Source of the DNA: Octopus vulgaris
Taxonomy: Eukaryota
Assembly (NCBI GenBank): GCA_951406725.2
Contig: OX597828.1
Span: 53,692,001-53,756,000 of the forward strand
Length of the DNA stretch: 64,000 bases
Direction: 5' to 3'
This document shows, piece after piece, positions 43,736 through 44,550 of this stretch (position 1 is the first letter of the stretch; each line of letters begins with the position of its first letter). A model generated the notes under the pieces. It ran no database searches. It saw only the letters and a list, made by a program, of their open reading frames with translations, and was not told the DNA's origin. The position numbers and the translations under genes are program-made.

Positions 43736-44550
43736 GAAAAAACAAGTCAAAAATAGAAAATGCTAAGATGATTTTATAGTGAATCTTTCAGTACCGGTTT
43801 CGGTCATTTTGAGACCTTTTCAACTGTAACGATTAAATAATTAAATTTAGAAAAATTAGAAGAAAAGTTTTTTTAAAAGAATATTTCTGTAGTAGTGTTC
43901 AGATATAAGTAGCATTCTGCCTTTCTCTGACTCCCTTGTTTGCACTTGTGTGTTCGAGGTCGTTTTGAGTTCTTGGTAGGATAGGTGAAGAATAATGAGG
44001 CTGATGTGGAGAGGGGTGGGGAAATCTGGGAACGCCTTAATGGTCGTATTTTGAATGGTCAGTGGCTGACAGTGGCTGACAGTAGTCGCAGTTCAATTCA
44101 GGAATTGTTTATGGAATTTGCGTAGGCGTTATACTGAAAGACATTAGTGACAAGGTTAAGGGGTGGAAGGTGGAGAAGTAGAAGAAGAAGAAGATGACGA
44201 TGTTGATGATGATGATGATGATGATGAAGAAGAAGAAGAAGAAGAAGAAGGAGAAGGAGAAGGTGGTGGTGATGATGGTGGTGATGATGATGACGACGAT
44301 GATGATGATAATGATGATGATGAAGAAGAAGAGGAAGAAGAAGAAGAAGAAAAAAACAGAGAAGGGAGAATATGAATGGGTGTAAGTATAGCTTTGATGG
44401 GGCTGATTAGTAATGGATTCTATGGAGTGTAATATTTGTGTGTGTATATATTTCTTTTATTCTAAAGTTGAGGTATATTAATTGTTTGTCGTAGACCCGT
44501 TAAGAAGTGGCTTGTATTTTGTAATAAAGAGATTTTCTTTACTTTACTTA
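43736..44550 (-). mobile_element. 5'-truncated Penelope-like element (ORF end plus pLTR with hammerhead) in (TA)n, family H3
   Basis: (TA)n on both sides. The minus strand starts with SKENLFITKYKPLLNGSTTNN* (44543-44478), like the ExxFIxxxKPxLN end of PLE GIY-YIG domains, and carries a hammerhead near its 3' end. Confidence 0.72.
43789..43826 (-). ncRNA. minimal type I hammerhead ribozyme, U3-A8 core variant
   Basis: CAG-UUGAAAA-GGUC(UCAAAAU)GACC-GAAA-CCGG-UA-CUG; palindromic stem III ACCGGU, GUA triplet. Confidence 0.7.

Follow-up and report, generated by a model that had tools for sequence, protein, structure and literature searches.

A minimal hammerhead motif with a U3-A8 core, carried by the terminal repeats of young Penelope-like retrotransposons in Octopus vulgaris

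A hammerhead core that reads UUGAAAA in place of CUGANGA raises the question of whether its central 3-8 pair was lost by drift or kept in another form, and of which genetic element carries it. Such a core was found in a 64,000-nt stretch of Octopus vulgaris DNA (the whole stretch analyzed, hereafter the window), where a minimal type I hammerhead motif occupies positions 43789..43826 of the minus strand and reads from 43826 to 43789, an assignment based on the sequence and on 1,747 exact copies. In this direction the motif comprises the 5' strand of stem I (CAG, 43826-43824), the core UUGAAAA (U3 at 43823, followed by U4, G5, A6 and A7, A8 at 43818 and A9 at 43817), a 4-bp stem II (GGUC, 43816-43813, with GACC, 43805-43802) that starts with G10.1-C11.1 and encloses a 7-nt loop, G12-A13-A14 of the GAAA box (43801-43799), the self-complementary palindrome ACCGGU (43793..43798), the triplet GUA, and the 3' strand of stem I (CUG, 43791-43789), giving a stem I of 3 bp. 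Based on the hammerhead NUH rule, the predicted cut lies between 43792 and 43791, 3' of A17, and the palindrome is predicted to pair between the two molecules of a double hammerhead, giving a helix III of 6 bp. The first-pass annotation of this DNA had described the core as changed to UUGAAAA and the other hammerhead parts as intact, leaving the strand unstated, and this description was borne out on the minus strand.

The folding energy alone is unremarkable: stems I and II form in the 38-mer, with an energy z of -1.07 and equally good values in 28 of 200 shuffles. It is the copy number that argues against a chance motif, because exact copies of the 41-nt motif stretch were found 1,747 times (879 + 868) in the 2.8-Gb genome, compared to none for the reversed control. 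A search of the whole window with Rfam at gathering thresholds returned no hammerhead and a single match, a solitary 5S rRNA at 53463-53581 (plus strand, 100.7 bits). That searches built on CUGANGA would miss this family, as had been anticipated, was confirmed by a pattern combining CUGANGA with the same stem II and palindrome, which gave one match as opposed to at least 1,747. The motif shares with the minimal type I hammerheads of Penelope-like elements (PLEs) the core boxes with a pairable 3-8 position (UUGAAAA, GAAA and, as the UH site, GUA), the short helices I (3 bp) and II (4 bp, starting with G-C as G10.1-C11.1), and a palindromic helix III region suited to a dimer (ACCGGU, from cofolding). 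The extra base after A9 is absent, GGUC following A9 directly; this base is described as common, not universal, among PLE minimal hammerheads (PMC4209133, which, like PMC3088659, PMC8557442, PMC11167929 and PMC7229834 below, is cited from part of its text).

The terminal repeat (pLTR) in which the motif lies is that of F1, a young family of Penelope-like retrotransposons encoding a reverse transcriptase (RT) plus GIY-YIG; the first-pass annotation, correct in its reading of the ribozyme parts, had overlooked this affiliation. The 30 best genomic matches share the window sequence from the (TA)n at ~43736 rightwards over variable lengths, several of them as inverted pairs. In the full-length copy L159, motifs at positions 937 and 5175 mark two repeats 4.2 kb apart, flanking ORF1 (~410 codons) and a 785-codon ORF2 as expected of PLE pLTRs. 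No Pfam match was obtained for ORF1 in the one copy tested, while ORF2 of the copy L057 matched RVT_1 (E 3.5e-8) and, weakly, GIY-YIG (E 3.8e-4; 21.1 bits, below the curated cut-off of 22.6). An RT with a C-terminal GIY-YIG, the latter at this sub-cut-off score, corresponds to EN+ PLEs of the Neptune/Nematis type, as does a C-X4-C-X2-C in the ORF2 translations, which agrees with the CX2-5CxxC linker described before the endonuclease of this type (PMC8557442). Insertion features also correspond to the tandem or inverted pLTRs, optional tail and microsatellite targets of PLEs: inverted pairs occur, an optional tail of ~30-40 nt was present on 19 of 60 sampled arms (all chosen for intact hammerheads), and six or more TA units followed the 3' end in 28 of 50 sampled ends. 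Optional tails and (TA)n ends are known marks of Penelope-like elements (PMC8557442, PMC11167929). Metazoan non-LTR retrozymes, by comparison, are non-coding tandem repeats of a few hundred bases that carry a canonical type I hammerhead; F1 is a 4.2-kb coding element, and its window copy is solitary.

In F1 and in a related family, F3, the -1 frame overlap between ORF1 and ORF2 falls on a U6A heptamer (L159:2261-2324; L153:2880-3051), which, from the sequence, is likely a programmed frameshift; no stable hairpin was predicted downstream of the site in F1. Such a frameshift between ORF1 and ORF2 was rejected as a novelty, since the legend to Fig. 1 of PMC8557442 names it for PLEs, and a literature search on the slippery sequence found nothing.

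The window copy itself is a 5'-truncated F1 element consisting of the ORF2 end, the 3' UTR and the pLTR (43736..44544, minus strand), delimited by the extent common to other loci and by its identity to the long copy L031 (94% over 886 aligned bases, minus strand only). No inverted partner arm was found within the window. Comparison with ORF2 of L031 and L159 places the last ~21 codons and the stop of the RT/GIY-YIG ORF2 at 44478..44544 (minus strand). Tandem Repeats Finder (TRF) identified (TA)n tracts at the 3' end of the element (43624..43735), likely the insertion target, and at the 5' truncation point (44549..44588). The copy is a lone 0.8-kb stub and probably inert, with a core inherited from the master element.

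Several other features of the window were recorded. Directly before U3, a pyrimidine-rich tract ending in AG (43824-43870, minus strand) resembles a 3' splice site; the AG is absent from F3 and from the hammerhead types F5 and F6, and Penelope of D. virilis has an intron whose end lies at helix I (PMC4209133). Two short inverted-repeat insertions in (TA)n (38212-38537 and 40691-40958) belong to a different family and carry canonical C3-G8 hammerheads with a CUGAAGA core and an 8-nt palindrome, located at 38346 (minus), 38402 (plus, palindrome broken) and 40825 (minus). Broken reading frames at 39030-39661 (minus strand) resemble a Tc1/mariner transposase. Finally, TRF reported a 34-bp minisatellite of 18 copies (7836-8443) and a 52-53-bp tandem array (8492-9361).

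Whether U3-A8 is the family consensus, a check that had been called for beforehand, was examined by counting genomic copies, and U3-A8 proved to be the state of F1. A 34-place pattern with another base at position 3 gave five matches (three C3-A8, one G3-A8 and one C3-G8), and the same pattern with U3 and another base at position 8 gave four (two G, and two C that both stem from one inverted site). U3-A8 thus accounts for ~99.5% of F1 matches, and since the patterns differ in length (34 places versus the 41-nt exact stretch), the U3-A8 class has at least 1,747 members. With 1,747 exact copies against five plus four variants, a single drifted copy of a CUGANGA family was rejected as an explanation. 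Moreover, the motif is covered by contigs of four public sequencing runs, each labeled with a different other organism, and the rows listed agree with the window at both 43823 and 43818, a hint that relatives may share the U3-A8 core.

C3-G8 was found on a U3-A8 backbone in two places: in one F1 copy (C13, at L043/L049, C13:524776), and in one arm of the sister family F2 (L110:4383), where the opposite arm of the same inverted site reads U3-A8. Over 325 nt the F1 copy shares 99% identity with U3-A8 copies from a single subfamily, and it is nested among U3-A8 copies; as the other subfamilies and F2 are also U3-A8, an ancestral status of this C3-G8 form is unsupported. Independent drift would be expected to yield ~0.007 such copies in F1, a figure raised by several other private changes in the C13 copy, and ~0.1 in F2. 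The C13 copy may go back to a lineage that was active for a short time and in which a compensated reversion took place, or it may be due to chance.

Constraint cannot be read from young copies that are all identical, and hammerhead families of the genome were therefore compared. In F2, U3-A8 was present in 95 of the 100 matches listed (539 in total). F2 has the same core, stem I and palindrome as F1, with flanks only ~74% (upstream) and ~66% (downstream) identical in a comparison of 27 arms, some of them truncated, and the closing pair of stem II is A-U in most F2 copies listed as opposed to G-C in F1. All 100 listed matches of F3 (L145-L157; 106 in total) combine a U3-G8 wobble core with a 2-bp stem II, and ORF2 of this family is 56% identical to that of F1 over 771 amino acids. 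The long open ORFs of F3 point to recent activity, and its U3-G8 core is a candidate intermediate between C-G and U-A. At L153:4328-4555, the end of an F1 copy adjoins the 5' repeat of an F3 element without a gap, showing that related PLE families abut or nest.

The comparison also included repeats of other kinds. A tandem repeat of ~362 bp, of the retrozyme type and with a 6-bp stem I, showed U3-A8 in 100 of 100 matches listed (793 in total), while a ~359-bp tandem repeat, also of the retrozyme type and with a similar stem II loop, has C3-G8 (L143:2554-2960, L163-L168 and L092-L108 for the two repeats). An abundant repeat (L121:2372-2413, minus strand; L169-L180) reads G3-C8 in 95 of the 100 matches listed; its 6,024 matches refer to a 22-nt pattern for the 5' half, and the 3' half was present at 10 of 11 sites fetched. 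For G3-C8, the literature search returned a laboratory variant only.

When 13 hammerhead types were aligned, positions 3 and 8 were found to pair in all of them (U-A in seven, C-G in four, G-C and U-G in one each), a result reached by none of 500 shuffles, and slid controls lacked the two-sided change. This table is partly selected, as three of the four C-G rows derive from a search requiring C3 and G8, through which F2 was also reached, and F3 was reached through a Y3/R8 pattern; several rows represent a single site, and relatedness is uncontrolled. A decayed candidate (L050, ~position 290), which failed the scan, and the motif assignment of F4 were left out. Among the types caught with positions 3 and 8 left free (F5, F6, R2, R2b, L090, L160 and the G family), seven of seven were Watson-Crick paired. 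Shuffled DNA gave five matches in three rounds of 695 kb, none of them paired, and one match, paired, in ten rounds of 271 kb. Pairing in 13 of 13 types, from a partly selected sample, supports constraint on the 3-8 pair. The proposal that U3-A8 is a kept pair rather than the drift of one copy was upheld, as the state is family-wide and other hammerhead families of the genome also retain a pair at 3-8. Its extension to selection for activity stays putative, since the identical copies reflect one young master element, and a predicted U3-A17 pair and a mutational scan, both described below, count against it.

What such a pair would be kept for was approached by structure prediction and by analogy with studied hammerheads. 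On these grounds, the F1 motif is probably a slow ribozyme in the terminal repeat of a young PLE, which would need dimerization or the assistance of a protein to cut the element RNA after GUA, and in which U3-A8 is the predicted stand-in for the tertiary C3-G8 pair. Two hammerheads would pair through ACCGGU to form helix III, the cut would trim or release element RNA, and the 3-8 pair would be under purifying selection in active master elements. Helix III cannot form within one molecule, because only two pairs around a 2-nt loop would be available. In cofolding of two copies at three fragment lengths, the intermolecular pair probabilities of ACCGGU ranged from 0.74 to 0.99, and the predicted dimer was a double hammerhead that combined ACCGGU pairing with swapped stem I strands. 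When 130-210 nt of natural flank were included, the predicted monomer fold dropped to 0.16 or less, which counts against strong activity. PLE minimal hammerheads have been reported to cleave weakly as dimers, and a dimer was proposed there (PMC4209133); the PLE hammerhead of the anole cleaves only with the protein of the element and depends on the 3-8 pair (PMC11167929). It is the combination of the predicted dimer, the weak PLE dimers and the protein-dependent anole hammerhead that favors a slow, assisted ribozyme.

A possible though clearly less probable alternative is a silent fold, in which the 3-8 pair and the helices would serve structure or protein binding close to the start of reverse transcription, and cleavage would be negligible or irrelevant. 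For the anole element, unprocessed RNA was the dominant template and hammerhead mutants had no effect on insertion in vitro (PMC11167929), and in F1 an intact upstream hammerhead has been kept in three long copies (L034, L052 and L159). Both this alternative and the argument against strong activity gain from a predicted U3-A17 pair over the cut site (probability 0.65-0.70 in the monomer, 0.32-0.82 in the dimer), which parallels an inhibitory C3-G17 trap (PMC3884650), and from a scan of a type III hammerhead in which only the G-C swap rescued and the other double mutants, including U-A, had low activity (PMC9901934); values for the 3-8 pair are absent from the supplement of that study. A further, weak point against strong activity is that no start at the cut site was seen in 60 sampled arms, which were chosen for intact hammerheads, or in six long copies. 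The nearest apparent truncations lie at -8 and +13 from the cut, and other rows at +13 and +25 look like subfamily differences. On the other hand, it is in the catalytically active conformation that positions 3 and 8 pair (PMC3884650), so that the keeping of this pair across families fits selection for catalysis better than a silent fold, and the same core is present in the retrozyme-type repeat with the 6-bp stem I, a kind reliant on cleavage.

A more speculative and rather unlikely proposal is that U3 is kept as a latch, which would pair with A17 and hold the ribozyme off, so that uncut RNA could serve reverse transcription until dimerization or the element protein flips U3 onto position 8; the genome would then preserve a natural path from C3-G8 through U3.G8 to U3-A8. 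The supposed stations of this path are present in the 106-copy wobble family, two U-A families and two C-G copies on a U-A backbone, besides the 6,000-match G3-C8 family. However, other families of the genome combine U3 with C17 or U17, and A17 is therefore not required for U3. Least probable, and in our view improbable, is neutral decay with hitchhiking, according to which an AT-biased master lost C3 and G8 by chance and was then amplified with a meaningless U-A match: in its favor, A+T makes up 62% of the window, C3 and G8 were each replaced through a transition that adds A or T, the identity of the copies reflects only a recent burst and Naiad elements spread without canonical hammerheads (PMC8557442), but core, stem I and palindrome are identical in F1 and F2 with flanks differing by a quarter to a third, all seven motifs recovered with free positions 3 and 8 are Watson-Crick paired, including the G3-C8 family against the AT bias, and no family with a mismatched 3-8 state was met.

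The novelty of U3-A8 that the first-pass annotation had implied does not hold. Perreault et al. (2011) published a natural covariation from C3-G8 to U3-A8, cited there as active in vitro (PMC3088659), and Cervera and De la Pena (2014) described ~1,300 minimal hammerheads with U3-A8 in Cercyon PLEs of Schistosoma mansoni, which their first descriptor had missed (PMC4209133). A literature search on C3U and G8A found no paper. The word octopus is absent from the one of two supplementary files of PMC4209133 that was searched, occurs in the consulted part of PMC8557442 with respect to Naiads only, and is absent from the consulted part of PMC7229834, which together with the parts used of PMC6431247 and the preprint 10.64898/2026.07.22.740005 served as context only. 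The F1 family may thus be unreported, its kind being already published. The count of one CUGANGA-type match against at least 1,747 copies implies that descriptors based on CUGANGA under-count hammerheads in this genome. Furthermore, natural U-A, U-G, C-G and G-C versions of the 3-8 pair within one genome, some on a near-identical backbone, provide a panel for assessing what cleavage is worth to the element, and if the latch or the wobble path were true, the fitness landscape of the 3-8 pair would become testable with natural sequences.

With regard to the parent element, F1 resembles the EN+ PLEs of Neptune/Nematis type described by Craig et al. (2021; PMC8557442) in the order of RT, CX2-5CxxC linker and GIY-YIG, as well as in its pLTRs, inverted truncated copies, optional tail, (TA)n targets and possible frameshift-separated ORF1, a likeness drawn from domains, linker and insertion features. 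The hammerhead of PAc Poseidon from Anolis carolinensis is likewise a pLTR motif, with the ORF start close by and the tail downstream of it (PMC11167929). Unlike F1, it has a C3-G8 core and protein-assisted cleavage has been shown, and it overlaps the ORF start, whereas the F1 motif lies ~120 nt upstream of the start of ORF1.

With regard to the core, the variants of Perreault et al. show the same 3-8 covariation and are not tied to the present element type or host in the consulted part of that paper (PMC3088659); U3-A8 is fixed in several high-copy families here. The Cercyon elements, whose U3-A8 hammerheads are mostly solitary, share with F1 a minimal type I hammerhead in the pLTR, U3-A8, G10.1-C11.1, a palindromic helix III and a predicted dimer, and a PLE-associated supplementary row, S. 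mansoni(4), has the same UUGAAAA start (PMC4209133). F1 differs from them in its 4-bp helix II without the extra base after A9, in the 6-nt ACCGGU of helix III, in the cleavage base A17, which is able to pair with U3, and in its host, Octopus vulgaris. Finally, the Cercyon U3-A8 hammerheads are heterogeneous, whereas F1 copies are nearly identical. To a core variant that was already published, F1 contributes an example that is homogeneous and present at high copy number.
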